A DNA stretch of 18,333 bases from a virus (lineage: Duplodnaviria; Heunggongvirae; Uroviricota; Caudoviricetes), in the IMG/VR virus record IMGVR_UViG_2778261506_000010, one strand, 5' to 3'. The notes beneath the pieces were generated by a model. That model made no database searches and was not told the origin of the DNA. It saw nothing but the letters and a program-made list of their open reading frames with translations. Of the stretch, positions 1-16,316 are shown piece by piece. Position numbers and translations under genes: made by a program. Each line of letters begins with the position of its first letter. Within the stretch, counting starts at the first letter, position 1.

Positions 1-588
1 ATGATCGTAGATGTTGAAGAGAAAACAGTTAATGATTTCTTTAAAAGCAACACACTCTCACCTTTTTCTGTAAGAAGGTTTTATCCGGCATACTTGATGG
101 TGGAATGTGAAGATTTTTCATTGTTAAAGAACTTGATTGCATGCTTGAATTGTGATGGCAGAACTGTGGATTTTGTTAGAAATCAAATATCACTTGCATG
201 TCTTGCTATCTTATCTTCAGAGAAAATAGTGCAAAGTTTTTTATTTGGATGTCTTAATAGTTTAGGAAGTAAAGTTAAGGCTATTATTCACACGGATATA
301 TCTGCAGCATGGAGACTTTGTGATATATCTTCAAGACTGTATCTGAGTGAAAGTCTGTTAAAAAGAAAATTAAAGCACGAAGGCTTATCATTTAGTAAGT
401 TAATTCTTGAAGAGCGAATGGTGATGGCGGAAAGGTTATTAAGCTACAATTTATATTCTGTTGGAAAAGTTGCTGAGATATGCGGTTATGAAAACACGTC
501 ATATTTTGTAAGTGTTTTCAGAAGGTATTTTGGTGTTCCTCCCCATCAATATTCATCAAGATTTTTTTTAGAAAAAGACATGATGTAA
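1..588 (+). CDS. AraC/XylS-family transcriptional regulator (AppY/Rns/GadX-like subfamily), C-terminal ~195 aa; 5' end lies upstream of the window
   Basis: Reading frame is open from base 1 to TAA at 586-588. The C-terminus carries the AraC-type HTH signature (...SESLLKRKLKHEGLSFSKLILEERM...VGKVAEICGYENTSYFVSVFRRYFGVPPHQY). Sequence is visibly AT-rich. Confidence 0.8.
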   Translation: MIVDVEEKTVNDFFKSNTLSPFSVRRFYPAYLMVECEDFSLLKNLIACLNCDGRTVDFVRNQISLACLAILSSEKIVQSFLFGCLNSLGSKVKAIIHTDISAAWRLCDISSRLYLSESLLKRKLKHEGLSFSKLILEERMVMAERLLSYNLYSVGKVAEICGYENTSYFVSVFRRYFGVPPHQYSSRFFLEKDMM

Positions 589-649
589 CGTGATGCGTTT
601 TAATGATTTTGTAATTTTCGTATTTGATAATTGTATGATGCTTTCAGCT

Positions 650-680
650 ACGCCAGAATAATCGCGGCGTTTTTCTTTTT
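650..680 (+). terminator. possible weak intrinsic terminator after the regulator gene
   Basis: Short GC stem (CGCC/GGCG, 4-5 bp, ~11-nt loop) followed by TTTTTCTTTTT. The stem is weak, so this is tentative. Confidence 0.25.
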
Positions 681-775
681 GAATAGATGTTCAAGCCTTA
701 CGCTAATGTAACTTCTATACCTTTCCTCTTCGTTCCGAACCGTGTACACCATCCGTTATTTGCGGAGGTGAGGCT

Positions 776-991
776 ATGAAATCCATGGATAAGTTAACAA
801 CGGGTGTCGCCTATGGCACCTCAGCAGGTAGTGCCGGTTACTGGTTTTTACAGCTGCTCGATAAAGTCACGCCCTCACAGTGGGCAGCAATAGGTGTGCT
901 GGGTAGCCTGGTATTTGGCCTGCTGACGTACCTGACAAACCTTTATTTCAAGATTAAAGAAGATAAGCGCAAGGCTGCGAGAGGTGAATAA
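776..991 (+). CDS. S: class II holin, phage 21 S21-type pinholin (71 aa) with dual-start motif
   Basis: Strong SD GGAGGTGAGG 6 nt upstream of ATG 776. Product begins MKSMDKL (Met1-Lys-Ser-Met4 dual start for antiholin/holin forms) and is a close match from memory to S21 (...[17 protein letters not shown]...[10 protein letters not shown]...[19 protein letters not shown]). Two predicted TM segments. Its stop overlaps the next start (TAATG). Confidence 0.9.
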
Positions 992-1488
992 TGCCTCCAT
1001 CATTACGAAAAGCCGTTGCTGCTGCTATTGGTGGCGGAGCAATTGCTATAGCATCAGTGTTAATCACTGGCCCAAGTGGTAACGATGGTCTGGAAGGTGT
1101 CAGCTACATACCATACAAAGATATCGTTGGCGTATGGACTGTATGTCACGGGCATACAGGAAAAGACATCATTCCCGGTAAAACGTATACCGAAGCAGAA
1201 TGCAAAGCCCTCCTGAATAAAGACCTTGCCACGGTAGCCAGACAAATTAACCCGTACATCAAAGTCGATATACCGGAAACAACGCGCGGCGCTCTTTACT
1301 CGTTCGTCTATAACGTGGGCGCAGGCAATTTCAGAACATCTACTCTTCTTCGCAAAATAAACCAGGGCGATATCAAGGGCGCATGTGACCAGCTACGTCG
1401 CTGGGCATACGCTGGCGGTAAGCAATGGAAAGGCCTGATGACTCGTCGTGAGATTGAGCGTGAGGTCTGTTTGTGGGGGCAACAATGA
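991..1488 (+). CDS. R: SAR endolysin (phage 21 R21-like lysozyme, T4-lysozyme/GH24 fold)
   Basis: 165-aa ORF. N-terminal Gly/Ala-rich weakly hydrophobic segment ([21 protein letters not shown]) typical of signal-anchor-release domains, followed by a lysozyme-like core. ATG overlaps the holin stop. Confidence 0.9.
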
Positions 1489-1949
1489 GCAGGGTAACCG
1501 CGATTATCTCCGCTCTGGTTATCTGCATCATCGTCTGCCTGTCATGGGCTGTTAATCATTACCGTGATAACGCCATTACCTACAAAGCCCAGCGCGACAA
1601 AAATGCCAGAGAACTGAAGCTGGCGAACGCGGCAATTACTGACATGCAGATGCGTCAGCGTGATGTTGCTGCGCTCGATGCAAAATACACGAAGGAGTTA
1701 GCTGATGCGAAAGCTGAAAATGATGCTCTGCGTGATGATGTTGCCGCTGGTCGTCGTCGGTTGCACATCAAAGCAGTCTGTCAGTCAGTGCGTGAAGCCA
1801 CCACCGCCTCCGGCGTGGATAATGCAGCCTCCCCCCGACTGGCAGACACCGCTGAACGGGATTATTTCACCCTCCGGGAACGACTGGTAATGATGCAGGC
1901 CCAACTTGAAGGTGCTCAGCAATACATAACCGAGCAGTGTTTAAAGTAA
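1485..1949 (+). CDS. Rz: Rz-like i-spanin (inner-membrane spanin subunit)
   Basis: ATG 1485 overlaps the endolysin stop (ATGA). N-terminal TM helix ([16 protein letters not shown]) then a charged, coiled-coil-prone periplasmic domain. The track start at 1473 is a GTG; ATG 1485 is preferred. Confidence 0.85.
1705..1890 (+). CDS. Rz1: Rz1-like o-spanin, outer-membrane lipoprotein encoded in the +1 frame entirely inside Rz
   Basis: 61-aa ORF nested in Rz. SD AAGGAG ~8 nt upstream. Lipoprotein signal peptide [20 protein letters not shown] (lipobox VVGC) and proline-rich mature part ([15 protein letters not shown]). Confidence 0.85.
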
Positions 1950-2068
1950 AATCTTAACTACAATATGATTCATTTTGATGATTGTTTCATAAGGAACAGT
2001 GAAGTAAGATCTAAGAGGAGTTAAATTTTATACAGTATAATCATAATATTGCAGCAAGGTGGTTATAA

Positions 2069-3544
2069 TTGAAAGAATATTTAGATATGAATACATCTCA
2101 TGTAAGAGTTGTTACTCATATGTGTGGGTTCCTGGTTTGGCTCTATAGTCTTTCAATGTTGCCACCAATGGTTGTAGCATTGTTTTATAAAGAAAAAAGC
2201 CTGTTCGTTTTCTTTATAACTTTCGTTATATTTTTTTGCATTGGTGGCGGAGCGTGGTATACAACTAAGAAATCTGGCATTCAATTACGTACCCGTGATG
2301 GGTTTATTATAATTGTAATGTTTTGGATTTTGTTTTCTGTTATTAGTGCATTCCCTTTATGGATTGACTCAGAACTTAATTTAACGTTCATTGATGCTCT
2401 GTTTGAAGGGGTTTCTGGAATAACAACAACAGGAGCAACTGTAATTGATGATGTTAGTTCATTACCTCGGGCATATTTGTACTATCGGTCACAGTTAAAT
2501 TTTATAGGTGGTTTAGGAGTTATTGTTCTGGCGGTTGCTGTATTGCCATTATTGGGTATTGGTGGTACAAAGCTTTATCAGTCAGAAATGCCGGGGCCAT
2601 TTAAGGATGACAAACTCACTCCCCGCCTGGCCGATACGTCACGGACACTGTGGATAACTTATTCTTTATTAGGTATTGCTTGTATTGTCTGTTATAGACT
2701 TGCAGGAATGCCTTTGTTTGATGCTATTTGTCACGGGATTTCCACAGTTTCGCTTGGTGGTTTCTCAACTCATAGCGAGAGTATCGGATATTTTAATAAC
2801 TATTTGGTTGAGCTGGTGGCTGGTTCTTTTTCCCTGCTATCGGCTTTCAACTTCACTCTTTGGTATATTGTTATTAGCAGGAAAACGATAAAACCTTTAA
2901 TCAGAGATATTGAACTTCGTTTCTTTCTGTTAATAGCCTTAGGGGTGATCATTGTTACCTCTTTCCAGGTCTGGCATATAGGTATGTATGACTTGCATGG
3001 AAGTTTTATTCATTCGTTTTTTCTTGCCAGCTCCATGCTCACTGATAATGGTTTAGCTACGCAGGATTATGCAAACTGGCCCACGCACACGATAGTGTTT
3101 TTGCTGTCGTCAAGTTTCTTTGGGGGATGTATAGGTTCAACTTGTGGTGGAATTAAGTCACTTCGATTTCTTATACTTTTCAAACAAAGCAAACACGAGA
3201 TAAATCAGCTTTCTCATCCCAGAGCGTTGTTGAGTGTAAATGTAGGAGGGAAGATAGTTACAGATCGTGTAATGAGGTCTGTATGGAGTTTCTTTTTTCT
3301 TTATACTCTCTTCACGGTGTTTTTTATACTGGTGTTAAATGGTATGGGATATGATTTTCTTACATCATTTGCAACAGTGGCTGCATGTATTAATAATATG
3401 GGATTAGGTTTTGGGGCTACTGCATCGTCATTCGGAGTGCTTAATGACATTGCAAAATATTTAATGTGCATAGCTATGATTCTTGGTCGCCTTGAAATTT
3501 ATCCTGTTATTATATTGTTTTCAGGTTTTTTTTGGCGCTCCTAA
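2069..3544 (+). CDS. trkG: TrkH/TrkG-family potassium uptake membrane protein (Rac prophage trkG-like)
   Basis: 491-aa polytopic membrane protein with TrkH-family hallmarks (...FEGVSGITTTGATV..., ...LPLLGIGGTKLYQSEMPGPFKDDKLTPR..., ...GGCIGSTCGGIKSLRFLILFKQ..., ...ILGRLEIYPVIILF...). Very AT-rich compared with flanking phage genes. Start is TTG 2069 (SD-like AAGGTGG 6 nt upstream) or ATG 2087 (MNTSHVRVV...). Confidence 0.9.
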   Translation: MKEYLDMNTSHVRVVTHMCGFLVWLYSLSMLPPMVVALFYKEKSLFVFFITFVIFFCIGGGAWYTTKKSGIQLRTRDGFIIIVMFWILFSVISAFPLWIDSELNLTFIDALFEGVSGITTTGATVIDDVSSLPRAYLYYRSQLNFIGGLGVIVLAVAVLPLLGIGGTKLYQSEMPGPFKDDKLTPRLADTSRTLWITYSLLGIACIVCYRLAGMPLFDAICHGISTVSLGGFSTHSESIGYFNNYLVELVAGSFSLLSAFNFTLWYIVISRKTIKPLIRDIELRFFLLIALGVIIVTSFQVWHIGMYDLHGSFIHSFFLASSMLTDNGLATQDYANWPTHTIVFLLSSSFFGGCIGSTCGGIKSLRFLILFKQSKHEINQLSHPRALLSVNVGGKIVTDRVMRSVWSFFFLYTLFTVFFILVLNGMGYDFLTSFATVAACINNMGLGFGATASSFGVLNDIAKYLMCIAMILGRLEIYPVIILFSGFFWRS

Positions 3545-3628
3545 TATATGGCTGATTTATAATTGTGAGTTTAATATTATATTGACTCACTCATTGATCC
3601 AATACCTAACTTTACCAGCAACACCTCC

Positions 3629-3665
3629 GCCCCCAGTAGCACTGGCTGCTGGGGTGCGTTTTATT
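3629..3665 (+). terminator. intrinsic terminator downstream of trkG
   Basis: About 10-bp stem CCCCAGTAGC / GCTGCTGGGG (one G-U pair), 4-nt loop ACTG, then GCGTTTTATT. Confidence 0.5.
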
Positions 3666-3681
3666 CATAAAGCAAGGCTGT

Positions 3682-4470
3682 ATGAGCGAGAAATTAAAGA
3701 TAGTCTATCGCCCATTACAAGAATTGTCACCGTATGCGCACAACGCCAGGACGCACAGTACTGAGCAGGTGGCACAACTGGTAGAAAGTATTAAGCAATT
3801 CGGCTGGACTAATCCGGTGCTGATTGACGAAAAGGGCGAAATTATTGCGGGTCACGGTCGTGTTATGGCGGCTGAAATGCTCAAAATGGATTCTGTTCCG
3901 GTCATTGTTCTGTCTGGCCTGACGGATGAGCAGAAAAAGGCGTACCGCCTGGCAGATAATCGCCTACCGATGAATGCTGGCTGGGATGAAGATCTGTTGC
4001 GGATGGAGCTGTCGGACCTAATCAATGCTGATTTTGATGTCTCCCTGACAGGCTTCGGCCCGACAGAAATTGATGAACTGTTGACGGATGTTTTGCCCGG
4101 TACAGGAAATAAGGAGGAGCCGTATACGACGAAAATTGATACGCCTGTTTATGAGCCGTCGGGCGGTAAACCGGATATCAGTGAACTGTACGACGATACG
4201 AAAACTCAGGAGCTGATCAGCCGGATACGTTCGGCGTCCCTTGAGCCTGATATTGAGAAATTCCTCCTGTGTGCGGCAGAACGTCACACGGTGTTTAATT
4301 TCAGCAGAATTGCGGACTATTACGCTCATGCCCCCGCTGAAATTCAGTGCCTTTTCGAGGAGTCGGCGCTGGTGATCATTGATTATCAGCAGGCTATTGA
4401 AAATGGATTTGTCCGAATGACGCAGCGCATGGTGGCGATCATGCATAGCGGGGAGGAGGAATATGCGTGA
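3682..4470 (+). CDS. ParB-like nuclease (ParB N-terminal/sulfiredoxin-like) domain protein, ynaK-like
   Basis: 262-aa ORF. N-terminal region resembles the ParB N-domain (...YRPLQELSPYAHNARTHSTEQVAQLVESIKQFGWTNPVLIDEKGEIIAGHGRVMAA...). C-terminal half is acidic with no obvious known domain. Confidence 0.7.
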   Translation: MSEKLKIVYRPLQELSPYAHNARTHSTEQVAQLVESIKQFGWTNPVLIDEKGEIIAGHGRVMAAEMLKMDSVPVIVLSGLTDEQKKAYRLADNRLPMNAGWDEDLLRMELSDLINADFDVSLTGFGPTEIDELLTDVLPGTGNKEEPYTTKIDTPVYEPSGGKPDISELYDDTKTQELISRIRSASLEPDIEKFLLCAAERHTVFNFSRIADYYAHAPAEIQCLFEESALVIIDYQQAIENGFVRMTQRMVAIMHSGEEEYA

Positions 4471-5326
4471 TGATTTTTGCGCCTTTATTCTGACTCACGG
4501 GCGACCGGACAAAGTTCTGACTTACCGGACGTTGCGTCGTGCTGGCTATACCGGGAAAATTTTTATCGTTGTTGATGATGAAGATAAGACACGGCATCAG
4601 TACATGGCTGAATTTGGTGAACAGGTGCTGGTATTTTCCAAAGCAGATATTGCCAGTCGTTTTGACGAAGCCGATAATTTTGGTGACCGCCGCTCAATTT
4701 TTTACGCCCGTAATGCCTGTTTCGACCTGGCAAAACTGGTCGGGTGTAAATACTTCATTCAGCTCGATGATGATTATCACGAGTTCCAGTTTCGGGTGGA
4801 TCGCAACTATGACCAGGCCTATTTCCCGATAAGGAAACTGGATGCGATCCTTTCTGAAATGCTGGCGTATTACGAATCAATACCCGCGCTTTCCATCGCT
4901 ATGTCGCAGGGCGGGGATTTTCTTGGTGACAATGGCGGCCATGCTTCGTGGGTGAAACGCAAGGCAATGAACAGCTTTATCTGTTCGGTTGATCGACCGT
5001 TCTCATTCATGGGGCGCATTAACGAGGATGTGAATACGTACACGAATCTCGGTCGCCGTGGTGAATTGTTTATGACGATCGGTGCTGTCCAGTTAGGGCA
5101 GAAACAGACGCAGAAAAACAGCGGCGGAATGACCGAGCTGTATCTGGATTCCGGGACCTACGTTAAAAGTTTTTATTCCGTCATGTATGCGCCGTCGTGC
5201 GTAAAAATCTCACTGATGGGCGCCAGCCATAAACGCATTCACCATCAGGTCACCTGGAACAACGCTGCAGTAAAAATCCTTCACGAAAAATACAGGAAGA
5301 AGACACCCTGCATATTAATGGGGTGA
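4463..5326 (+). CDS. hypothetical protein, GT-A-fold (family 2-like) putative glycosyltransferase, ydaY-like
   Basis: 287-aa ORF with SD GGAGGAGG 5 nt upstream; start overlaps the ParB-like stop (ATGCGTGA), indicating translational coupling. Motif layout resembles GT2 enzymes: FILTHGRPD (cf. IPTYNRP), IFIVVDDED (cf. IVVDDGS), FYARNACFDLAKLVGCKYFIQLDDDY (DxD region). No obvious TM helices. Confidence 0.75.
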   Translation: MRDDFCAFILTHGRPDKVLTYRTLRRAGYTGKIFIVVDDEDKTRHQYMAEFGEQVLVFSKADIASRFDEADNFGDRRSIFYARNACFDLAKLVGCKYFIQLDDDYHEFQFRVDRNYDQAYFPIRKLDAILSEMLAYYESIPALSIAMSQGGDFLGDNGGHASWVKRKAMNSFICSVDRPFSFMGRINEDVNTYTNLGRRGELFMTIGAVQLGQKQTQKNSGGMTELYLDSGTYVKSFYSVMYAPSCVKISLMGASHKRIHHQVTWNNAAVKILHEKYRKKTPCILMG

Positions 5327-5329
5327 CAA

Positions 5330-5581
5330 ATGATTCCGTATTCGAAAGTCGAGTCTCTGGCAGCGTGCCGGATGACTGCACAACAAATCGCTGACGTACT
5401 GGATGTTGATCTGAACCGACTGAAAGAAAATCGGGAAGCAATGACAAATTTTTACGCGTCCATCCGTAAGGGCAGAGCGAAAGGTGAAGCCGAGCTACGG
5501 GCGGCATTGTTTAAGCTTGCCAGAAAAGGGGATGCCTTTGCCCTGCGCGAACTACTCAGGGTGGATAAAAATCAGGACTAA
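5330..5581 (+). CDS. small hypothetical protein (83 aa), possible HTH DNA-binding or terminase-associated protein
   Basis: ORF sits tightly between the GT-A-like gene (stop 5326) and terminase small subunit (start 5585). Putative HTH segment MTAQQIADVLDVDLNRLKEN. Confidence 0.55.
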   Translation: MIPYSKVESLAACRMTAQQIADVLDVDLNRLKENREAMTNFYASIRKGRAKGEAELRAALFKLARKGDAFALRELLRVDKNQD

Positions 5582-5584
5582 CTG

Positions 5585-6679
5585 ATGAGCAGACCGGACT
5601 GGGGGGCGTTGCAGCAGGAGTATATTGCTGAATACACCCGCTCCGGTATATCTCCGGTGGCATGGTGTGAAGCAAGGGGACTGAATTACGCAACAGCCCG
5701 TCGTTACATCAAAAAACCTCCGAAAAATGCGCAGACAGAAATGCGCAAAACTGCGCAAAAAAGTGCGCAGAAAAAATCTGCGCAGACTGCACAAAAGCGG
5801 AACGGAAAATCTCAGGAAAAAAAGCCAGTATCCGATGCGTACCTGAATGAGGGCGATGCGGAAGAAATTTCGTTCTGTCCCGATGAATTCGGCGTTTCTG
5901 ACCAGCAGGCGAAATTCGCAATGCTGGTTGCCCAGGGGAAAAAACTCGTTGAGGCATATCGCCTGGCAGGATACGAGTCAGAGGGGAATGCGGCCTACGT
6001 AACCGCCAGCCAGCTCCTAAGAAATCCTAAGGTTTTTCGTGCTATCAGCTACTTCCGCAATCAGTACCAGAAACGCTATACCGCAGACCTGGATTTACTG
6101 GTGAGTCAGTTGATGGCCATTGTCCAGGCCGACCCCAATCAGTTGGCACAATTTCGCCGTGTTAACTGCCGTTATTGCTGGGGCGAGAATCATCACTACC
6201 AGTGGCGCGATATAGCAGAATTCGATAAGGCAGCGGCGCAGGCCTCCAGAGATGGCAAACCCGAGCCGGAATATGGTGGCCTTGGCTTTGTTGATAACGC
6301 CATACCCAATCCGGACTGCCCGAAGTGCTGCGGTGAGGGAACGGGGCAGCTTTATATGGCTGATACCACTCTGCTTGATGGGGATGCGCGGCAATTATAT
6401 GCAGGGGCAAAGCTCGGAAAATTTGGTGTTGAGATCCTGCTGGAGGATAAGGCTGCCGCCCGGCGTGAATTGTTGCGTTTGCTTGCTGCTGGCGGGGCTT
6501 TATGTGCAGATAAGCGGCTACAGGAACTGGAAATTGAACGGCGCAGAATGGAAAACCAGAAGCTGCGCAAAGAGATCGAAACGGTGGAGGATAATGAACA
6601 TCCCCAACCTGTTGCGATCAATATTAATGTGGTTGATGCCAGAGTAAGGAGTGATGAAGATGATCTCTCCGACGCTTAA
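5585..6679 (+). CDS. terminase small subunit (Terminase_2-like core with N-terminal HTH, Cys4 zinc ribbon and C-terminal coiled coil)
   Basis: 364-aa ORF immediately upstream of the large terminase. Motif ...QQAKFAMLVAQGKKLVEAYRLAGYESEGNAAYVTASQLLRNPKVFRAI... matches the TerS family pattern. CxxC...CxxCC at 6167-6331. Confidence 0.7.
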   Translation: MSRPDWGALQQEYIAEYTRSGISPVAWCEARGLNYATARRYIKKPPKNAQTEMRKTAQKSAQKKSAQTAQKRNGKSQEKKPVSDAYLNEGDAEEISFCPDEFGVSDQQAKFAMLVAQGKKLVEAYRLAGYESEGNAAYVTASQLLRNPKVFRAISYFRNQYQKRYTADLDLLVSQLMAIVQADPNQLAQFRRVNCRYCWGENHHYQWRDIAEFDKAAAQASRDGKPEPEYGGLGFVDNAIPNPDCPKCCGEGTGQLYMADTTLLDGDARQLYAGAKLGKFGVEILLEDKAAARRELLRLLAAGGALCADKRLQELEIERRRMENQKLRKEIETVEDNEHPQPVAININVVDARVRSDEDDLSDA

Positions 6680-7961
6680 TGTGCCTCAGGCGCGATTTCT
6701 TTCAATGCCCCACAAATTTAAAGCCTATGTCGCTGGTTTTGGCTCGGGTAAAACATGGATTGGGTGTGGTGGCATATGCAAGGGGATTTGGGAACATCCT
6801 GGTATAAATCAGGGATATTTTGCGCCAACGTATCCCCAAATTCGCGATATTTTTTACCCTACAGTGGAAGAAGTTGCTGCTGACTGGGGATTGAATGTAA
6901 AAATTAATGAGGGAAATAAAGAGGTTCATTTTTATTACGGACGTCAGTATCGGGGAACCACTATCTGCAGATCGATGGAGAAGCCGCAAACGATCGTCGG
7001 TTTCAAAATTGGTAATGCGCTGGTGGATGAACTGGACATTTTGCCGAAGGAAAAAGCCAGAACAGCGTGGCGCAAGATAATTGCGCGTATGCGTTATAAG
7101 GTTGATGGACTTCGCAACGGTATTGACGTTACAACCACGCCGGAAGGATTCAAATTTGTCTACGAGCAGTTTGTTAAAGCCGTGCGTGAAAAAACAGAGC
7201 TGGCCTCACTGTATGGTCTGGTGCAGGCATCTACTTTCGATAATGAAAAGAACCTGCCAGCAGATTACATTCCTTCGCTTCTTGAGTCATACCCTCCAGA
7301 GCTGATTAAAGCCTATCTTCGAGGACAGTTTACTAACCTGACAAGTGGTACTGTTTACCATCAGTTTGACCGGAAACTGAATAATTGCGAAGAAGTGGAG
7401 CAGCCAGGGGAGCCGATTTATATTGGGATGGATTTTAACGTTGGAAAGATGGCGGGGGTCGTCCATGTACTGCGTTTGGGGCTTCCATGTGCGGTAACTG
7501 AAATCATCAATGCCTACGATACACCGGATATGATCCGCATCATTAAAGAACGCTTCTGGCTGTATGACGGGAATGATTACCGGAAAGTGAGGGAGATTTA
7601 TATTTATCCAGATGCTTCCGGAGATTCCAGAAAATCAAGTAACGCAAGTACGACGGATATAGCCCAGCTTAAGCAGGCTGGTTTTAACGTTGTGGTGAAC
7701 AGCTCGAACCCGCCAGTAAAAGATCGCGTTAACTCAATGAATGCAATGTTCTGCAATGCCAATGGCGAACGTCGCTATAAAGTTAATGTGAAGCGTTGTC
7801 CGGTATATGCCGAATCTCTGGAGCAACAGGTCTGGGATGATAAGGGGGAGCCTGATAAAAAATCAGGCAACGATCACCCGAATGATGCCGGAGGCTATTT
7901 CATCGTTAAGCAATTCCCTATTATCAAACCGACCGGAAGAGTCACATCACTTCGGATTTAA
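6660..7961 (+). CDS. terminase large subunit (ATPase/nuclease)
   Basis: Walker A-like motif AGFGSGKTW near the N-terminus; acidic nuclease-like C-terminal motifs (IYIGMDFN..., ...GNDHPNDAGGY). SD AAGGA at 6646-6650 favours ATG 6660; the track start 6651 is GTG. Overlaps the end of the small subunit gene. Confidence 0.85.
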   Translation: MISPTLNVPQARFLSMPHKFKAYVAGFGSGKTWIGCGGICKGIWEHPGINQGYFAPTYPQIRDIFYPTVEEVAADWGLNVKINEGNKEVHFYYGRQYRGTTICRSMEKPQTIVGFKIGNALVDELDILPKEKARTAWRKIIARMRYKVDGLRNGIDVTTTPEGFKFVYEQFVKAVREKTELASLYGLVQASTFDNEKNLPADYIPSLLESYPPELIKAYLRGQFTNLTSGTVYHQFDRKLNNCEEVEQPGEPIYIGMDFNVGKMAGVVHVLRLGLPCAVTEIINAYDTPDMIRIIKERFWLYDGNDYRKVREIYIYPDASGDSRKSSNASTTDIAQLKQAGFNVVVNSSNPPVKDRVNSMNAMFCNANGERRYKVNVKRCPVYAESLEQQVWDDKGEPDKKSGNDHPNDAGGYFIVKQFPIIKPTGRVTSLRI

Positions 7962-7963
7962 TT

Positions 7964-9370
7964 ATGGCTGATATATCAACACCCAACCTCGACTATAACG
8001 ATATGCTGGAGGCGTGGGATATTAACGACGCACTGATGGGCGGTACGCTTGAAATGCGCAGGCAGGGGGAAAATTATCTCCCAAAATGGCCTAACGAAGA
8101 TGAAGACGCTTATAAAAAACGCCTGTCTGTGGCTACGCTACTTCCTGTGTATGAAGAAAGCATTAAGCAAAATATTGGACGCATATTTGCAGAGCCGACA
8201 GTATTGAGTGAGGAAACGCCGGAAAAAATCAGGGAATATGCAGAAAATATCGACATGGAGGGGAGCCGACTGGATGTGTGGGCGCAGCAATTTTTCAGCC
8301 TCGCATTTCAGTATGGTGTGGCACATGCGCTGGTGGACTATCCACGAACGGATATGAAGGAGATCCGGACAAAAGCCGATGAAAATGCGGCTGGTGGTCG
8401 CCCATACGTTACGATGCTGAATCCACGCCAGGTTATTGGATGGAAATCGAAAGTTGAAAAAGGGAAAGTTGTTCTTACTGATTTGCGTATAAAAGAAGTC
8501 ATCATTGTTGATGGTGATGATTTCGTGCAGAAGAAGGTGGAGCAGATCCGCCATATTATGCCCCGTTGCGTTGAAATTTATCGACGCAGCGAAGGTACTA
8601 ATGGCGAATCTGTCTGGACGCTTCACGAGTCATGGAATACCAGCCGTGATGATATTCCTCTGGTAACACTGTATACGAAGAAAACAGGGTTTATGCGTGG
8701 TACACCGCCATTGCTTAATCTTGGCTTGCTGAATATCAAGCACTGGCAAAGCCAGAGCGAGCAGGACAATATTCTTCATGTTGCCCGCGTCCCATTGCTG
8801 GTGGCCTACGGGCTGGACAGGAATGAAGAACTGACGGTTGGTGCATCCACCGCTACGATTTTTGAGGACAGAACAAAAAATGGCCTCGAATATGTTGAAC
8901 ATAGTGGGGCAGCGATAGAATCTGGCGAAACATCACTGGAGAAGCTGGAAAATCAGATGCGTCATGCCGGCGCTAAACTTCTGCGGGCTGAAAATACATC
9001 CACCAAATCTGTTGATCAGACTAATGAAGAGCGGATGCAGGAAAACTCGCCGCTTTATACAATGGCGAACTCCCTCGAAGATGCCCTCGATAATATTCTC
9101 CAGATAATGGCGGAATGGATCGGAGAGAGTTGCGGCGGCAATGTGGATGTGCGCACTGAACTGGATGTATCTGCCCAGGTGTTTGACTCATCCTCCGCGC
9201 TGGCTGTTCAGTCATTGCGTCAGGGCGGTGATATACGTCAGATTGATGCGGTTCGGGTGTTGCAGGCGTTGAAATTTATCGATCAGGATTCCCGTCCAGA
9301 GGAAGTGATCGATGAATTAAAAAATCAGAGTGTAATGCTGATGGAAATCAATGATGCAAACCGTGAATGA
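7964..9370 (+). CDS. portal protein (putative)
   Basis: 468-aa ORF directly after the large terminase in the canonical order; size and position fit a portal. Confidence 0.65.
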   Translation: MADISTPNLDYNDMLEAWDINDALMGGTLEMRRQGENYLPKWPNEDEDAYKKRLSVATLLPVYEESIKQNIGRIFAEPTVLSEETPEKIREYAENIDMEGSRLDVWAQQFFSLAFQYGVAHALVDYPRTDMKEIRTKADENAAGGRPYVTMLNPRQVIGWKSKVEKGKVVLTDLRIKEVIIVDGDDFVQKKVEQIRHIMPRCVEIYRRSEGTNGESVWTLHESWNTSRDDIPLVTLYTKKTGFMRGTPPLLNLGLLNIKHWQSQSEQDNILHVARVPLLVAYGLDRNEELTVGASTATIFEDRTKNGLEYVEHSGAAIESGETSLEKLENQMRHAGAKLLRAENTSTKSVDQTNEERMQENSPLYTMANSLEDALDNILQIMAEWIGESCGGNVDVRTELDVSAQVFDSSSALAVQSLRQGGDIRQIDAVRVLQALKFIDQDSRPEEVIDELKNQSVMLMEINDANRE

Positions 9371-10466
9371 ACGGCTGCGTGATGAATCAATTGCTCATGC
9401 AGTCTGGATATCTCGCTATAGCACTGGTGTGGCTGCCAGAATGGTGAAAACACTGAATGACAGCGATGCGGAGCTTACAGCTCGCCTGCTGGTGGCACTG
9501 GACAGCCTCGATCCAGGTAGTTTCACCGTTACGCGCCTGGAGTCACTTCTGGCGAGTGTCAGAGAGGTTAACCGCGCTGCTATTAACAGCATGTTTACCA
9601 GGCTCTCCGGAGAGCTGAACGAGCTGGCAGTTTATGAGGCTGGTTATCAGTTAAGTCTGTTTGATTCTCTGCTACCTGATTTTGTTGCTGATGTTCACCC
9701 TCTGGTTGGTATCTCACCTGATGCACTTTATGCCGCGGCAATGGCGCGACCATTCCAGGGACGACTGCTCAGTGAGTGGGCCTCAGATCTTGAGGCGGAT
9801 CGGCTCAGACGCATAACAAATACGGTGCGTCAGGGTTTTTTGTTGGGGGATACCAATGAGCAGATCGCAAGAAAAATTCGGGGACATGTCAGTAAGGGAT
9901 TTCAGGATGGTGCATTGCAGATGAGCCGGGCTAATGCGGCCAGCATTGCAAAAACAGCGGTTGGACATCTTGCTGCTACTGCCCGTGAGAGTTTTGCCAG
10001 CGCGAATAATGATTTGATTAAGGGTAAGCAATGGTTATCAACGCTTGATAATCGTACTACGCCACAATGTCGAATCAGGGATCGCCTCAAATATACGCTG
10101 AATAATAAACCTGTAGGTCACAGCGTGCCTTATTTGCAGGGGCCGGGAAAAATTCATTTCTGCTGCCGCTCAACGGAAACGTTCATTCTGAAATCAGCGA
10201 AGGAACTGGGTATTGATGTTCGTGATATTTCCCCGGCTGAGCGGGCCAGCATGGATGGCGTGGTGGCCGGAGATACAACCTACAGGGAATGGTTTTTGCG
10301 TCAGCCTTACACCAGACAAAAACAGATTGTGGGGGAAACCCGGGCAAAGCTGATTCGGGATGGCGGTATGTCGCCAGATGAATTTTACACCGATAAAGGC
10401 GAATGGCTGACGCTGAAGCAACTCCGTGAGCGTGATGCACAGGTATTCAGAAAAGCAGGGATTTAA
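9351..10466 (+). CDS. head morphogenesis / minor capsid protein (SPP1 gp7 / Mu F-like, putative)
   Basis: 371-aa ORF overlapping the portal gene 3' end, in the position typical of this family. Confidence 0.6.
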   Translation: MMQTVNERLRDESIAHAVWISRYSTGVAARMVKTLNDSDAELTARLLVALDSLDPGSFTVTRLESLLASVREVNRAAINSMFTRLSGELNELAVYEAGYQLSLFDSLLPDFVADVHPLVGISPDALYAAAMARPFQGRLLSEWASDLEADRLRRITNTVRQGFLLGDTNEQIARKIRGHVSKGFQDGALQMSRANAASIAKTAVGHLAATARESFASANNDLIKGKQWLSTLDNRTTPQCRIRDRLKYTLNNKPVGHSVPYLQGPGKIHFCCRSTETFILKSAKELGIDVRDISPAERASMDGVVAGDTTYREWFLRQPYTRQKQIVGETRAKLIRDGGMSPDEFYTDKGEWLTLKQLRERDAQVFRKAGI

Positions 10467-10485
10467 ATAAATCATTTATTACAAC

Positions 10486-10513
10486 AGGCTACCTTCGGGT
10501 GGCCTTTTTTATT
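10486..10513 (+). terminator. intrinsic terminator between head-morphogenesis and scaffold genes
   Basis: 8-bp stem AGGCTACC / GGTGGCCT (one G-U) with TTCG loop, followed by TTTTTTATT. Confidence 0.6.
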
Positions 10514-10570
10514 GCTGCGATCCGGATGGTGAGCAGCGTAACTGTCGGAAGACTTAAACCAGGTACTAAT

Positions 10571-11335
10571 ATGAAACTGAAAACGGTCGAGATTAACGGA
10601 AAACAATACGCAGAAATTGATACTGCTGGCCTGCCAGTTTATGTGCACGACGATGGTAAAGAAATCGGCTTCGATGCACCGCTGGCGATAAAAAAAATTA
10701 CAGAGCTTAATGGCGAGGCAAAAAATCATCGCCTGGCTAAAGAAGCTGCAGAGGAAAAACTGGCTAAGTTTGCCGCTATCGAAGACCCGAAGAAGGCGAT
10801 CGAGGCACTGGAAATGCTGTCAAAAATCGACCAGAAAAAGCTGATCGATGCGGGACAGGTTGACCAGGTTAAGGCAGAAATTACGAAAAATTTTCAGCAG
10901 CAATTAGATGAAGAAAAGCAACGCTCTCAGATGCTGGAGACGCAGCTTTACGATTCTATGATTGGCGGTAGTTTTGCGGGTTCAAAATATATTGCCGATA
11001 AAATTGCGATCCCGGCAGATTTATTACAAGCCCGCTTCGGGCAGGCATTCAAAGTGGAAGAAGGGAAGATCGTTGCTTATGACGCTTCCGGCAACAAAAT
11101 TTATTCCCGCGCGAAGCCTGGCGAACTGGCGCAGTTTGATGAGGCGCTGGAGTTCCTCGTCGAAAATTACCCTCAGAAAGACTACATCCTGAAAGCCAGT
11201 GGCAACAATGGCGGCGGCTCCCGTCCGACACAGCATGATATTGGTCAGAAAACGATGAAACGCTCTGCTTTTGATGCACTGGATGTTGCAGGTAAGCAAA
11301 ACGCATTGAAAGACGGTATCACAATCGTTGATTAA
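10571..11335 (+). CDS. capsid scaffolding protein (putative)
   Basis: ATG 10571 (MKLKTVEINGKQYAEI...) lies downstream of the terminator; the track start 10499 is a GTG inside the terminator stem and is unlikely. Product is acidic and helix/coiled-coil-rich, and sits immediately upstream of the major capsid gene. Confidence 0.6.
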   Translation: MKLKTVEINGKQYAEIDTAGLPVYVHDDGKEIGFDAPLAIKKITELNGEAKNHRLAKEAAEEKLAKFAAIEDPKKAIEALEMLSKIDQKKLIDAGQVDQVKAEITKNFQQQLDEEKQRSQMLETQLYDSMIGGSFAGSKYIADKIAIPADLLQARFGQAFKVEEGKIVAYDASGNKIYSRAKPGELAQFDEALEFLVENYPQKDYILKASGNNGGGSRPTQHDIGQKTMKRSAFDALDVAGKQNALKDGITIVD

Positions 11336-11433
11336 CACATTTGTCAGCTTCCGGATGGGAGCTGGTGTCAGGGCTGGATAGCTCATTACTCCATCTATTC
11401 ACAATTACGCAAATTTTTAAGGAATATTTAATT

Positions 11434-12573
11434 ATGGCTGGAAATACCCTGACCGGGTTGATCCCGACTATTTATACCGCCCTGGATGTTGTATCCCGTG
11501 AGCAGGTAGGTTTTATCCCTGCGGTAGCAAAAAACGCAAAAGCTGACGCCGCAGCAAAAGATCAGACGGTAACCGCGCCAGTTGCGCCTGAGGCGAAAAC
11601 CGAAGATATCGTACCGGGGCCGTCAGCTCCGAATACCGGTGATCAAAATATTGGCACTGTTGATGTAAAAATTACTAAATCCAAAATGGCACCGGTTAAA
11701 TGGAATGGTGAAGAACAACTGGCTCTTGGCCCTTCAGGGACTTACAACACCATTCTGGCTGATCAGTTCAAGCAGGCTTTTCGCGCCCTTGCAAACGAGG
11801 TTGAGGCTGAGCTTGGTGCGTTGTATTTCGGTGCTTCCCGCGCCGTGGGAACCGCAGGGACAACGCCGTTTGGTGTTAAAGATGATCTTTCTGATGCTGC
11901 TCTGGCTCGTCAGGTTCTGGAGGATAACGGCGCACCGACAACCGATCTGCAGATGGTGCTTGGCTCCACTGCCATTGCTAATTTGCGCGGAAAACAGTCT
12001 GTATTGTTTAAAGTGAATGAATCCGGCACTGAACAGCTACTGCGTGAGGGCGTGTTGGGGCGTCTGGAGGGATTCAATATTCACAGTTCGGCAGGTGTGA
12101 AACGAGCGCCAAAGGTTGCTGCAACTGGTTATCTCGTGAATGGAGAGAAAAAAGAAGGCGATGTTCTTATTTCCATTGATACTGGTTCGGGGAGTATTTC
12201 TGCAGGTCAGATTGTTACGTTCGCTGGTGATCCGAATCAGTATGTTGTGGCAGCAGCGACCAGCAATCTGATTACTCTTGCAGCGCCCGGACTGCGTCAG
12301 GATCTGGCCGATGATACTGCCATCACAGTTGTTGGGGCCTTTACTGCAAATATGGCGTTTGATCGCAACGCGTTTCTGCTGGCATCCCGTACTCCGGCAA
12401 TGCCGGAAGGTGGCGATAATGCTGATGATGTAATGAATGTTACGGACCCGATTTCAGGGATTACGTTCCAGATTGCACTGTATCGTCAGTATCGCCAGGT
12501 GCGCTATGAAGTTGGACTGGCATGGGGTGTTTCATCAGTGAAGCCGGCACATGGTTGTCTGATTCTTGGTTAA
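11434..12573 (+). CDS. major capsid protein
   Basis: SD AAGGAA 8 nt upstream of ATG 11434 (MAGNTLTGL...). The track start 11341 has no SD and overlaps upstream sequence. ~380 aa product followed by a strong terminator, as expected for the most abundant structural protein. Confidence 0.75.
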   Translation: MAGNTLTGLIPTIYTALDVVSREQVGFIPAVAKNAKADAAAKDQTVTAPVAPEAKTEDIVPGPSAPNTGDQNIGTVDVKITKSKMAPVKWNGEEQLALGPSGTYNTILADQFKQAFRALANEVEAELGALYFGASRAVGTAGTTPFGVKDDLSDAALARQVLEDNGAPTTDLQMVLGSTAIANLRGKQSVLFKVNESGTEQLLREGVLGRLEGFNIHSSAGVKRAPKVAATGYLVNGEKKEGDVLISIDTGSGSISAGQIVTFAGDPNQYVVAAATSNLITLAAPGLRQDLADDTAITVVGAFTANMAFDRNAFLLASRTPAMPEGGDNADDVMNVTDPISGITFQIALYRQYRQVRYEVGLAWGVSSVKPAHGCLILG

Positions 12574-12583
12574 ACATTCAAAC

Positions 12584-12604
12584 GGGGCTTCGGCCCCATT
12601 TTTA
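12584..12604 (+). terminator. intrinsic terminator/attenuator after the major capsid gene
   Basis: GGGGC-TTCG-GCCCC (5-bp GC stem, UUCG tetraloop) followed by ATTTTTA. Confidence 0.6.
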
Positions 12605-12615
12605 ATGGGGGGCAT

Positions 12616-12792
12616 ATGGCCGGATTAACTAAAGAGCAAAGAGCACAGCGTGAAGCCGCACAAAAAACGCAAATTGAGTTAGTGGTTATGGTGACCGATT
12701 ATCAGATGTTTCCCGGCGCACCAACTATCGCTAATGTTCATCCTGATGAAGTTGACAACTGGAAGGCTATGGGCTGGAAAACTCAGGAGTAA
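12616..12792 (+). CDS. small hypothetical protein (58 aa), absent from the supplied ORF track
   Basis: ATG 12616 is preceded by a G-run (GGGGGG); ORF ends TAA 12790-12792, just upstream of the next gene start, and overlaps that gene's SD. Translation MAGLTKEQRAQREAAQKTQIELVVMVTDYQMFPGAPTIANVHPDEVDNWKAMGWKTQE looks protein-like. Confidence 0.45.
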   Translation: MAGLTKEQRAQREAAQKTQIELVVMVTDYQMFPGAPTIANVHPDEVDNWKAMGWKTQE

Positions 12793-12795
12793 CAC

Positions 12796-13191
12796 ATGAT
12801 CACTTACGTGACCTGTGATGACGTTGATAATGCGTTTGGGAACGCCTGGACGAGTGAGAACGCTAAAAATAAAGCTGTTTTAATGGCTAATGCCTGGCTT
12901 AATGGTTTCAACCTGAAAATTAACCCATCCCGTATTCCGGAAGAGGTAAAACTTGCGGGAGCGTATGCAGCCAGAATTGCCTCATTCGGTAAGTTGTTTC
13001 AGCAGAAAAATGATTCTGGCGTTGTTATCAGTAAAGCCGTGTCGGCTGACGGGGTCAGTGTATCGAAATCATTTTCTGAGTTGCCAGCAAACAGCACTGC
13101 ATTGCTTGAACCCGATTTACAGCTTGCGATAGCACTGCTGAAACCGTACGGACTTAGTCGCTCACAAGTCAGGGTTGTGAGGGGGGGATAA
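12796..13191 (+). CDS. head-tail connector / head completion protein (putative)
   Basis: 131-aa ORF with SD CAGGAG upstream, first of four tightly packed ~130-aa ORFs between capsid and major tail genes. Confidence 0.6.
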   Translation: MITYVTCDDVDNAFGNAWTSENAKNKAVLMANAWLNGFNLKINPSRIPEEVKLAGAYAARIASFGKLFQQKNDSGVVISKAVSADGVSVSKSFSELPANSTALLEPDLQLAIALLKPYGLSRSQVRVVRGG

Positions 13192-13574
13192 TGGGGCTTC
13201 GTGAAGAGATTCAGTCAGAGGTTGCCGCTGCTTTTGATGAGGATTTAGCGGACGCCGTGAGTGATATTTCTGGTTCTTACGTTACGCACCGGCACTGGGA
13301 TCCTGTGACGGAAACTGGCGGCGAATCCACCGCAATCTATACCGGGCGAGGCGTGTTGACACGTTATAAGCTGGGCAGAATTGATGGGATTAATATTTTG
13401 CATGGTGACCTTAAATTAACCGCTCTGGTATGCGAGGTTACGGATAAACCAGCTGTCGACCATATTATTGAGATTTATGATCCTGTATCAAGGCAGTTAC
13501 AACGATACGAGGTAATTACAGCAAGTGTAGATCCTTCCGCATCAGTTTACTCTATCCAGTTAAGGAGAGCGTAA
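13191..13574 (+). CDS. head-tail joining / head closure protein (putative)
   Basis: 127-aa ORF with start overlapping the previous stop (TAATGG); neck-module position. Confidence 0.55.
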   Translation: MGLREEIQSEVAAAFDEDLADAVSDISGSYVTHRHWDPVTETGGESTAIYTGRGVLTRYKLGRIDGINILHGDLKLTALVCEVTDKPAVDHIIEIYDPVSRQLQRYEVITASVDPSASVYSIQLRRA

Positions 13575-13955
13575 ATGGCAAAGGCATGGGATATAGAACC
13601 GTCAATATTTGCCGGGATGATTGAGGAAGATGTAGGGCTGAAGATTCGCTACATCGCTATTCAGATTCTTACTGCTATTGATATTGCTGCTCCGGTTGAT
13701 ACCGGACGTTTCAGAAATAACAACCTGGTGTCGTTACAGCATCCCGATTTTGGTATATCTGATAACGTGGATCCGAACGGTACGATTGCTGTTCAGCGTG
13801 GGATCGGGGTTATTTCGAAAGCTGCAAATTACGGGGTTATTTATATCCAAAATAACCTTCCTTATGCAGAGGCTCTTGAAAACGGTCATTCACAACAAGC
13901 GCCAACTGGCGTGTATGCCAACGCTTTTCATGGTGTTTTACAGGCTTACAAATGA
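13575..13955 (+). CDS. neck/tail component, HK97 gp10-like (putative)
   Basis: 126-aa ORF with SD GGAGAG upstream; contains a DTGRFRNN motif resembling the HK97 gp10 family signature. Confidence 0.6.
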   Translation: MAKAWDIEPSIFAGMIEEDVGLKIRYIAIQILTAIDIAAPVDTGRFRNNNLVSLQHPDFGISDNVDPNGTIAVQRGIGVISKAANYGVIYIQNNLPYAEALENGHSQQAPTGVYANAFHGVLQAYK

Positions 13956-14344
13956 AGTTTACTGAAATCAGAAATACGGTTATTTCCAGAATGACGGCAC
14001 AGACGATTATTGATGGAAAAGACGTATTGTATCCGAACGGGCCAACGTTCGATCCTTCCGGTAAGTTAATCTGGGCGCGGTTAAGTAATATTCCCGGGCA
14101 GGCTGGAGTTAATGAAATTGGCGCGGGGCCGGTTGTTTATCGCACGGGGATAATCATTATTCAGTTATTTGTCCCCGCAGGTTCTGGTTCAAAACTCATT
14201 ACTGAGACAGCCGATAAATTGCGGGAACTGTTTGAGTTTCAGGATGACGATCGTCTCAGTTACCAGGCTGTTTCCTCAATAGCCGTCGGCGAAAAGAATG
14301 GCTGGTTCCAGCTTAATCTTCAAATTCCATATCACGCGCTCTAG
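13952..14344 (+). CDS. tail completion / tail terminator protein (putative)
   Basis: 130-aa ORF with start overlapping the previous stop (ATGA), immediately upstream of the major tail gene. Confidence 0.55.
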   Translation: MKFTEIRNTVISRMTAQTIIDGKDVLYPNGPTFDPSGKLIWARLSNIPGQAGVNEIGAGPVVYRTGIIIIQLFVPAGSGSKLITETADKLRELFEFQDDDRLSYQAVSSIAVGEKNGWFQLNLQIPYHAL

Positions 14345-14370
14345 CGCAATTAATGACATAGGAGGCTCCT

Positions 14371-15333
14371 GTGAGTTCAGGTGCAAAGGTTATCTCGGCA
14401 TTTATCCGGGAGACAGTTGCAGGCACTACGCCAGCAAGTGGTGACTGGAGTTTATTAAAACGCACAAGCTGGGGAGTAAAACCCACCCAGAATAAAGGCG
14501 AAAATAATGAGATTGGTGGCTCCCGGATGGCTCAGGGGGCGACGCCTGGCACTGTGGATGTCGGCGGTGATGTTGGTACCAAATTTCGCTGGGGTCAACA
14601 TGATGATTTTCTTGCATCCTGTTTCGGCGCGGAATGGTCAGGCGATTCTCTGACAATGGGGAATGAGCGAATAACATTTTCTCTGGCGACCTATGCGTCC
14701 GATGTCGGAATTGCCTCTGTCGTCAGAGGAGCGCAGGTTGGCTCATGGAAAATGCAGATCCCTAACGACGGCGATATTACAGCGACCGTAACCTTTGCCG
14801 GGCTGGGCTGGGAATCAAAGGCCGATGATACGAATTTTATCAAAGGCGAACCTGTGGATAGTGCAGGAAAGTTACGCTATTCGTTTAAGGCGGTTTCAGC
14901 AGTAAGCCTGAATGGTGTTGCCGGAGGTAACGGTTTTTGTATCGACAGTTTTGATATTCAGTTCGATAACAAACTCCAGACACAGCGTTGTATCGGGACT
15001 GGCTCGCCTTATGCAGGAGCAAATATTCCGACTACTTTTACACCGTCCGGTACGGTGACGCTTTCATGGTCTAAAGCCGCGTGGGAAATCTGGAGTAAAA
15101 CACTGACTGGAGAAACAGTTCCGTTCAGCTTCACGCTTTCGAATGGAGAGGGGGCATACACTTTCAGTTTCCCGAAGGTTCAGGTGTCAGGTGAATGGCC
15201 TGATGGGGGTAATACTGACATTATCCAGGTTCAATTGAGCATTACCGCAGCAGATGAAGCACCTACGATAACCAGAAAAAAATGCTCCCCGACTGCCGTG
15301 ATCGCAAAAGCCAGTGCTGATGCGATTAGTTGA
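14371..15333 (+). CDS. major tail (tube) protein
   Basis: Strong SD AGGAGG 5-6 nt upstream of GTG 14371. 320-aa Ser/Thr/Gly-rich product in the position upstream of the G/GT chaperone pair. Confidence 0.7.
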   Translation: MSSGAKVISAFIRETVAGTTPASGDWSLLKRTSWGVKPTQNKGENNEIGGSRMAQGATPGTVDVGGDVGTKFRWGQHDDFLASCFGAEWSGDSLTMGNERITFSLATYASDVGIASVVRGAQVGSWKMQIPNDGDITATVTFAGLGWESKADDTNFIKGEPVDSAGKLRYSFKAVSAVSLNGVAGGNGFCIDSFDIQFDNKLQTQRCIGTGSPYAGANIPTTFTPSGTVTLSWSKAAWEIWSKTLTGETVPFSFTLSNGEGAYTFSFPKVQVSGEWPDGGNTDIIQVQLSITAADEAPTITRKKCSPTAVIAKASADAIS

Positions 15334-15345
15334 TTTTCCGTTATT

Positions 15346-15372
15346 CCCCCTGTGGTACTGCACTACAGGGGG
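15346..15372 (+). promoter_or_regulatory. stable hairpin without U-tract between major tail and chaperone genes (possible mRNA stabiliser/processing or translational control element)
   Basis: 11-bp stem CCCCCTGTGGT / ACTACAGGGGG (one G-U), 5-nt loop; no T-run follows. The 3' arm overlaps the likely SD (GGGGGA) of the chaperone gene. Confidence 0.4.
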
Positions 15373-15381
15373 ACGCATTGA

Positions 15382-16151: not shown

Positions 16152-16271
16152 TTGTTAATTACGTACACTCTGTTACAGAGATGTGATGGTGTCTTTAATT
16201 AAATCGATGATGCTCCTGGAGAAAAGCATTGCGTGGCCTCGTAATCGCTATATCTACTATTATGTCGCCTG

Positions 16272-16300: not shown

Positions 16301-16316
16301 TCAGGAGTTTTAATAA

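Follow-up and report, generated by a model that had tools for sequence, protein, structure and literature searches.

We analysed an 18,333-nucleotide (nt) stretch of caudoviral DNA (IMG/VR record IMGVR_UViG_2778261506_000010; hereafter 'the window'), which carries trkG, a gene for the membrane subunit of a potassium transporter, in the late region of a lambdoid prophage. Positions 1950-3611 very probably form a trkG cassette, that is, a lysogenic-conversion moron that comes after the spanin gene Rz and before the packaging genes, in a lambdoid late region of the Rac type. The identity of the gene, its base composition, the cassette boundaries, the endpoints of the deletions seen in E. coli K-12, purifying selection and the conservation of the upstream elements were all observed directly on the DNA. 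Transport activity, dependence on TrkA and SapD, repression by H-NS and promoter activity are taken from published work on K-12.

The trkG gene and its product

The open reading frame (ORF) of trkG (2069-3544, forward strand) encodes 491 amino acids (aa) from a TTG at 2069, or 485 aa from the ATG at 2087 that is annotated in RefSeq. Its product matches the Pfam TrkH family (PF02386) over residues 40-483 (E-value 8.7e-144; 480 bits against a cutoff of 27), passes TIGR00933 (413 bits, cutoff 331) and matches the TrkH structures of Vibrio parahaemolyticus (4J9U/3PJZ) at 4e-121. With the NCBIfam equivalog model for TrkH (NF008020) it scores 453 bits, below the cutoff of 866, as expected for a TrkG paralog. 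Alignment with E. coli K-12 TrkG shows 481 identical residues out of 485, and the four differences (from K-12 to the window) are A161T, S330N, L341S and C458Y. Four pore loops with filter glycines can be read from the translation (TTTG116AT, SLGG225FS, TDNG322LA and NNMGLGF). The acidic residues conserved among Na+-activated transporters (D121, E231 and D327) are all kept, and the positions of the filter glycines relative to them match the published description (PMC9898762). On the minus strand, no ORF within the gene is longer than 56 aa.

The DNA of positions 1-6700 is 100% identical to several E. coli chromosomes, where this ORF is annotated as trkG. A first-pass annotation, made from the sequence alone, had described a 491-aa gene of the TrkH/TrkG family between lysis and packaging genes. 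Both parts of that description are confirmed: the gene is E. coli trkG of a Rac-type late region, with a lysis cassette (776-1949) on one side and a packaging module, starting at 5585, on the other.

Base composition

As expected of a moron, the cassette is distinct in composition from the surrounding phage genes. Its 1662 nt (1950-3611) have a guanine-plus-cytosine (GC) content of 0.365, compared to a mean of 0.480 (s.d. 0.014, minimum 0.452) for all other 1662-nt windows downstream (z = -8.3). The AT-richness noted at first pass, for which a GC calculation had been set as the check, is therefore real. The gene itself has a GC content of 0.380 and a GC content at third codon positions (GC3) of 0.325, and the spacer upstream (1950-2086) is as low as 0.255. 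By comparison, the lysis genes have a GC of 0.503 (GC3 0.44-0.53), and the two genes that follow the cassette, encoding a ParB-like protein and a TET-associated glycosyltransferase (TAGT), have a GC of 0.488 (GC3 0.54-0.55). The low GC content of trkG in E. coli (38% vs 53%) has been published (PMC9898762).

Alternatively, the AT-richness could simply follow from the T-rich codons of a very hydrophobic membrane protein, and hence be no sign of foreign origin or cargo. The gene is indeed 38% T and the AT skew is strongly negative over 2000-3600, both typical of membrane-protein genes. Yet GC3 is also depressed (0.325, against 0.43-0.55 in the neighbouring genes), the non-coding spacer is lower still, and the native E. 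coli paralog trkH has a GC content of 53% (PMC9898762). Moreover, an Enterobacter ortholog whose protein is 70% identical has a GC of 0.567 and a GC3 of 0.72, equal to its own flanks, so the low GC of trkG is not forced by the protein. The GC3 values and this GC-rich ortholog effectively refute membrane-protein composition as the sole cause, and we regard this explanation as extremely unlikely.

Boundaries of the cassette

On the left, the final ~75 nt of Rz always travel together with trkG. Prophages that share the same Rz but lack trkG lose homology at window position 1874, the prophage DLP12 diverges at 1939, and a diverged trkG allele located near icd (described below) retains 1876-1949 as an Rz remnant. 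On the right, the boundary falls between 3594, where the alignment of the icd-site allele ends, and 3611. Three IMG/VR contigs (L034, L097 and L099) that lack trkG and have a different lysis cassette share the backbone of ParB-like, TAGT and small terminase (TerS) genes, and their homology to the window starts exactly at 3612.

Upstream region and start codon

The hexamer TATAAT occurs exactly at 2036-2041 and 2064-2069, as the first-pass annotation had read, and a Shine-Dalgarno (SD) sequence, AAGGTGG, lies at 2054-2060. The icd-site allele, at a synonymous divergence (dS) of 0.44 from that of the window, has kept both hexamers, the SD and the TTG without change, and shares ~92% identity over the ~120 nt upstream. 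This argues for regulatory constraint on the DNA upstream of trkG. In the near-identical K-12 region, a cloned upstream fragment drives a reporter, and H-NS and StpA partly repress trkG (PMC9898762).

The start codon of trkG is probably the TTG at 2069 (491 aa) rather than the annotated ATG at 2087 (485 aa), judging from the local sequence and its homologs. The SD lies 8 nt before the TTG, and no comparable SD precedes the ATG. Many homologs of the TrkG clade are 491 aa long, and their N-termini align without gaps against MKEYLDMNTSH. In E. fergusonii, a GGAGG and a TTG are retained at the same relative position, while Citrobacter has a CTG at the position of the E. coli ATG and an in-frame TTG upstream. 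If translation starts at the TTG, the second TATAAT, which overlaps it, cannot be the -10 element of that mRNA, and the first one is the candidate. Transcription would then probably start from the hexamer at 2036-2041 and give a short leader with the SD AAGGTGG and, probably, the TTG start; we infer both the choice of hexamer and the use of TTG.

Evidence that weighs against the moron reading

Several observations count against a self-contained moron, and they mostly concern its control signals and its insertion site. A moron would be expected to carry its own promoter and terminator. Neither TATAAT has a recognisable -35 element, and a scan for consensus promoters finds no enrichment (6 sites vs 6.8 +/- 2.4 in shuffled sequences), with both hexamers absent from its listed sites. 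Since the DNA is AT-rich and the scan equals the shuffles, the hexamers alone are not beyond chance; their weight comes from their conservation across alleles. The earlier reading of the pair thus holds for the coordinates and less clearly for their role as promoters. It had also assigned a downstream terminator to trkG. A strong hairpin with a T-run does exist (3631-3664; folding of 3545-3681 gives -38.5 kcal/mol, z -2.8), but this sole good terminator is outside the cassette. Because trkG-less relatives share the block from 3612, hairpin included, it has to be counted with the backbone at this joint.

The empty site is also elusive. A moron's flanking genes should be adjacent where it is missing, and this holds only loosely, as the lysis cassette of the three trkG-less relatives is a different one. 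In none of 5426 complete E. coli genomes does the same Rz adjoin the ParB-like gene (0/5426, queried with a synthetic 600-nt junction), so the insertion point cannot be defined from E. coli genomes alone, and the IMG/VR relatives, DLP12 and the second trkG locus were used instead. As for function, the window allele differs from that of K-12 by its four substitutions, of which S330N is three residues from D327, and a trkG deletion showed no growth phenotype under the stresses tested (PMC9898762), so that a benefit to the lysogen is putative.

The K-12 Rac prophage is a deletion derivative

The Rac prophage of K-12 has long been known as defective. In a BLAST comparison, MG1655 Rac is 99.57% identical to the window over 1604-3935 and then jumps directly to 15492-17251 (99.43%). 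Leftward, the homology begins at ~1505, inside Rz. K-12 thus retains a 3' piece of Rz/Rz1 (rzpR, rzoR), trkG, ynaK, ydaY and, as ynaA, the beginning of the tape measure gene. This arrangement (rzpR'-trkG-ynaK-ydaY-ynaA') is what is left after at least three deletions: upstream of ~1505, from 3936 to 15491, and downstream of 17251. The second of these, of 11,556 bp, fuses ynaK to ydaY. K-12 Rac is therefore a deletion derivative of the arrangement seen in the window, and the earlier proposals that the two regions are homologous and that the window is the more complete version of a decayed K-12 late region both stand.

The K-12 genes at the deletion junction can now be identified. The gene ynaK is an N-terminal stub that comprises 85 codons of the ParB-like gene (262 aa in full). 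The gene ydaY consists of a 3-codon fusion leader and the last 117 codons (15493-15843) of a tail assembly chaperone gene, and its annotated start codon lies in ynaK-derived sequence. The first-pass annotation had seen a ydaY-like gene directly after the ParB-like gene, and had taken ynaK and ydaY for remnants of one two-gene module. The gene in that place (4463-5326) encodes the TAGT instead. The ParB-like half of the proposal is correct, and ydaY belongs to the tail chaperone, so that the two genes are the two ends of a deletion.

Annotation pipelines carry traces of this history. In strain X14-3, the Prokaryotic Genome Annotation Pipeline (PGAP) calls the intact tail assembly chaperone a 119-aa 'protein YdaY' from the TTG at 15484 (L001, 35484-35843). 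The truncated K-12 length has apparently been propagated onto intact prophages, and the same seems to be true of the label 'ynaK ... incomplete' on the full-length ParB-like gene. We rejected the 'incomplete' flag, as the ORF is full length (262 aa, vs 263 aa in ON470595).

The trkG of K-12 (b1363), in the cryptic Rac prophage, is the same gene. Its DNA is 99.6% identical, including the upstream spacer, the 3' end of Rz and the start of the ParB-like gene, and low GC, H-NS repression and Na+-dependent K+ uptake via TrkA are, by similarity, expected of the window allele too. The difference lies in the context: the K-12 gene sits in a triple-deletion remnant at ttcA, whereas the window has the lysis cassette, the ParB/TAGT pair and the terminase, head and proximal tail genes, and its clade is located at ybhC with a lambda-type integrase.

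Prophage chassis, integrity and distribution

The two strains examined for the chassis, X14-3 and MB52, are both 100% identical to the window. Their prophage is next to ybhC, which is the lambda attachment region on the K-12 map, and has lambda-type int/xis. The integration at ttcA with intR, recET and racR that defines a K-12-type Rac is seen in neither. X14-3 also has exo/bet/gam/kil/cIII, with cIII running straight into an IS1 insertion sequence (IS) and without cI/cro/O/P/Q; in MB52, IS3 and IS1 replace the early region, and the window itself contains none. In ON470595, a 98%-identical late region is located at ttcA and is preceded by a complete early region of Rac (intR, ralR, recT, recE, racC, kil, racR, ydaS-W and Q). 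The window prophage is a mosaic lambdoid prophage with a Rac-type late region, not Rac proper, and this late region is thus a module common to at least two lambdoid chassis.

The late region had been described as intact, with a complete packaging-head-tail module. The window does have the packaging, head and proximal tail genes, but the tape measure gene is not whole, as an IS5-family element (ISKpn26) breaks it at ~18207. The element is inserted after CTAG, and the apparent 638-aa ORF at 16317-18233 is a truncated fusion. Only X14-3 matches past 18209, and ISKpn26 is annotated inside the tape measure gene there; the end present in the window is 85% identical to the end of K-12 IS5. Taken literally, 'intact' would make the window a functional, inducible Rac phage. 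The packaging, head, connector and tail-tube ORFs are all open and are annotated as intact by PGAP in the identical strains, and PHASTER called similar regions 'intact' (bioRxiv 10.1101/2022.06.29.498070). Given the interrupted tape measure gene and the early regions of X14-3 and MB52, we give this possibility practically no credence. ON470595 and its sibling records are PHASTER predictions rather than isolated phages. We likewise rejected vB_EcoS-683R6 and similar deposits as proof of viable virions, as they are PHASTER predictions that include bacterial flanks.

Among the 5426 complete genomes, the trkG region is found in 1551, nearly always at 99% identity or above, and the ParB-like gene in about 1570. 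Full-length ParB-like and TAGT genes occur together in 867, at least 80% of the whole window in 682, and the K-12 ynaK-ydaY deletion junction in 348. Nineteen records have trkG at 90-95% identity, and 15 of the 1558 places that match the trkG region in the E. coli genome search are on plasmids, not chromosomes. A record named 'Salmonella phage SPF_0923' (ON032529.1) is 98.4% identical to window 1748-18209, starts inside Rz and carries trkG; this points either to carriage of the Rac-type late region across genera or to a mislabelled host.

A second trkG locus and the wider TrkG clade

A diverged trkG is found in E. coli E200086 adjacent to icd, where a transposase remnant and iraM flank it (L111, 8935-10633). 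This allele aligns to window 1876-3594 with 89% nt and 96.5% aa identity, and lies outside any recognisable prophage late region, although it keeps a 75-nt remnant of the Rz 3' end. Comparison with the window allele gives a dS of 0.44 and a non-synonymous rate (dN) of 0.019 (dN/dS 0.045). Thus trkG is under strong purifying selection, and its upstream region is conserved far above the synonymous rate. Published work lists trkG among the most conserved rac genes (PMC5700373).

In other Enterobacterales (Enterobacter, Serratia, Pantoea, E. fergusonii and others), genes of the TrkG clade are chromosomal and have non-phage contexts. Their proteins are 60-79% identical, of equal length, and have an N-terminal hexapeptide that aligns with the TTG-start form. 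The Enterobacter gene, for example, is located between ygiQ and ftsP-plsC-parC and, unlike trkG in the window, has the GC content of its flanks. The low-GC subclade (E. coli, E. fergusonii and Citrobacter) is the mobile one.

Proposed role of the cassette

Published work shows that K-12 TrkG mediates Na+-dependent K+ uptake, needs TrkA and partly needs SapD (PMC9898762). By homology and on the strength of this work, a dimer of the window's TrkG would dock onto the RCK ring of host TrkA, lean partly on host SapD and take up K+ in a Na+-dependent manner. The prophage would provide only the pore subunit, with the partners coming from the host. In the lysogen, trkG would be transcribed from its own conserved AT-rich upstream region, partly repressed by H-NS and StpA, and, being co-oriented with the late operon, it would also be transcribed in lytic growth.

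A different view is that trkG is chiefly a phage fitness gene, with K+ uptake or homeostasis during late lytic growth or superinfection helping the phage itself. Its place and orientation inside the late operon would then be the functional point. It is co-oriented with the late genes, and under Q antitermination transcription would pass the hairpin at 3631-3654. Strong purifying selection and the lack of a lysogen phenotype in the published work (PMC9898762) can be read the same way, as can the strict linkage of trkG to the ParB-TAGT-head backbone in E. coli, with no empty site and nearly equal numbers of genomes carrying trkG and the ParB-like gene. The linkage, however, is equally explained by common descent, as nearly all copies are at least 99% identical, and backbone relatives without trkG do exist. 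Heavily decayed prophages that are no longer lytic (K-12 is an example, and 348 genomes share its deletion) still keep trkG, which ranks among their most conserved genes, and the icd-locus copy persists without any phage late genes. Retention in both settings indicates selection in the host. We therefore consider it very unlikely that trkG is chiefly a phage fitness gene or has been kept because it serves the phage. A lysogenic-conversion moron is the reading that we retain.

This reading has a parallel in other lambdoid prophages. In DLP12, essD-rrrD-rzpD is 94% identical to window 765-1939 and is followed by borD, so trkG occupies the slot of bor. Phage lambda carries bor in the same slot downstream of Rz, and bor is expressed from the prophage. 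Like trkG, bor and borD are passenger genes dispensable for phage growth. They differ in that bor encodes a small lipoprotein from the opposite strand, whereas trkG, at 1.5 kb, encodes a transporter in the orientation of the late operon, and in that trkG depends on host partner proteins. At the protein level, a close comparison is TrkH (E. coli; Vibrio 3PJZ and 4J9U), which belongs to the same fold family over its full length, has four pore loops with filter glycines and is gated by TrkA. TrkG is a paralog (41% identical to E. coli TrkH) that is Na+-dependent and less SapD-dependent (PMC9898762), and, unlike TrkH, it is phage-borne and AT-rich.

Other features of the window

The coordinates of all features are collected in table 1. 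Scans of the whole window with Rfam models and for tRNAs found nothing, and a PADLOC scan gave no defence-system match for TrkG, the TAGT or the AraC-like protein.

Table 1. Features of the 18,333-nt window, with positions, strand and the basis of each assignment.
Feature	Positions	Strand	Basis
AraC-family regulator gene, 3' part (cut by window start)	1-588	+	Pfam HTH_18/HTH_AraC; GC 0.328, GC3 0.27
Lysis cassette: P21-S-type holin (776-991), lysozyme (991-1488), Rz i-spanin (1473-1949)	776-1949	+	Pfam
Rz1 o-spanin (K-12 rzoR equivalent), embedded in Rz	1705-1890	+	Translation with lipobox VVGC
Left mosaic-joint zone, last ~75 nt of Rz	1875-1949	+	trkG-less prophages, DLP12, icd-site allele
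AT-rich upstream regulatory region of trkG (putative)	1950-2068	+	Sequence reading, GC, ~92% conservation vs diverged allele, published K-12 data
trkG, TrkH-family K+-translocating membrane subunit	2069-3544	+	Pfam, TIGR00933, K-12 alignment, structures, dN/dS
AT-rich 3' trailer of trkG cassette	3545-3611	+	icd-site allele, trkG-less relatives
Intrinsic-terminator-like hairpin and T-run	3631-3664 (stem 3631-3654)	+	10-bp stem, 7 G-C pairs
Full-length ParB_N-domain protein, 262 aa	3682-4470	+	Pfam ParB_N; YnaK alignment; 263-aa ON470595 copy
Segment deleted in K-12 Rac, 11,556 bp	3936-15491	.	BLAST, junction sequences; 2-bp (AA) microhomology
TET-associated glycosyltransferase (TAGT, 'GREB1-related'), 287 aa	4463-5326	+	Pfam PF20691, 4.9e-36
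Packaging/head/connector/tail-tube module	5585-15333	+	Pfam, PHROGs
Tail assembly chaperone, 153 aa from ATG 15382	15382-15843	+	phrog_313 8.2e-47, residues 5-153
Tape measure gene, N-terminal part, cut by IS	16317-18206	+	K-12 ynaA remnant ends at 17251
IS5-family element (ISKpn26): terminal inverted repeat and start, beginning GGAAGGTGCGAACAAG	18207-18333	+	Sequence, X14-3 annotation

The AraC-like gene lies just upstream of the holin gene and resembles a second piece of cargo, placed in the slot that separates Q from the lysis genes. In X14-3 it is annotated as a 243-aa helix-turn-helix protein (L001, 19857-20588), and both there and in MB52 it is preceded by a gene of the YbgA family. The best curated matches of its product are regulators of the YdeO/HilD/GadX type, all far below cutoff. 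A 44%-identical AraC-like gene occupies the corresponding position in the IMG/VR contig L034. In a Rac relative at the ttcA site (L003), where homology to the window starts only at 758, a tRNA-Thr and a tRNA-Gly (31653-31803) are found between Q and the holin gene, the place of the YbgA/AraC-like genes in the window's clade.

The ParB_N-domain and TAGT genes (3682-5326) are paired immediately ahead of the terminase genes. Only residues 10-141 of the ParB-like protein match the N-terminal module of the PADLOC model MTase_II (1e-38), and alphaproteobacterial proteins are 57-61% identical to it over the same ~146 residues. These matches suggest a domain swap that brought the DNA-targeting part of methyltransferase fusions to a glycosyltransferase partner, and the pair is a candidate DNA-modification module. 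A G-run near the end of the TAGT gene (~5318-5326) is GGGG in the window (287 aa) and GGGGG in ON470595, where the 310-aa form overlaps the gene that follows. PGAP labels the window form 'frameshifted'; the 287-aa form gives a tidy stop-ATG junction with the ORF at 5330.

The module at 5585-15333 comprises TerS, the large terminase (TerL), portal, head morphogenesis, scaffold and major capsid proteins, Ad1, Hc1, Neck1, the tail terminator and the tail tube. The tail assembly chaperone gene follows, between the tail tube and tape measure genes.

Significance

The location of trkG in rac, its low GC content and foreign origin, its control by H-NS and its role in Na+-dependent K+ uptake were already published, and in this respect our finding is a rediscovery. 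With the phage origin, low GC and H-NS control of TrkG established, it matters little beyond housekeeping. What is added are the exact deletion endpoints, the corrected identity of ydaY, the cassette boundaries, the IS disruption, the non-Rac chassis and the argument for the start codon. The TTG start, if true, adds six residues to TrkG. The K-12 genes ydaY and ynaK are truncated forms of a tail assembly chaperone and of a ParB-domain protein, respectively; they are fusion artefacts and not functional genes. Finally, the delimited trkG cassette (from about 1875/1950 to 3594/3611), together with its conserved upstream region, provides a defined fragment for studies of the promoter and of its control by H-NS.

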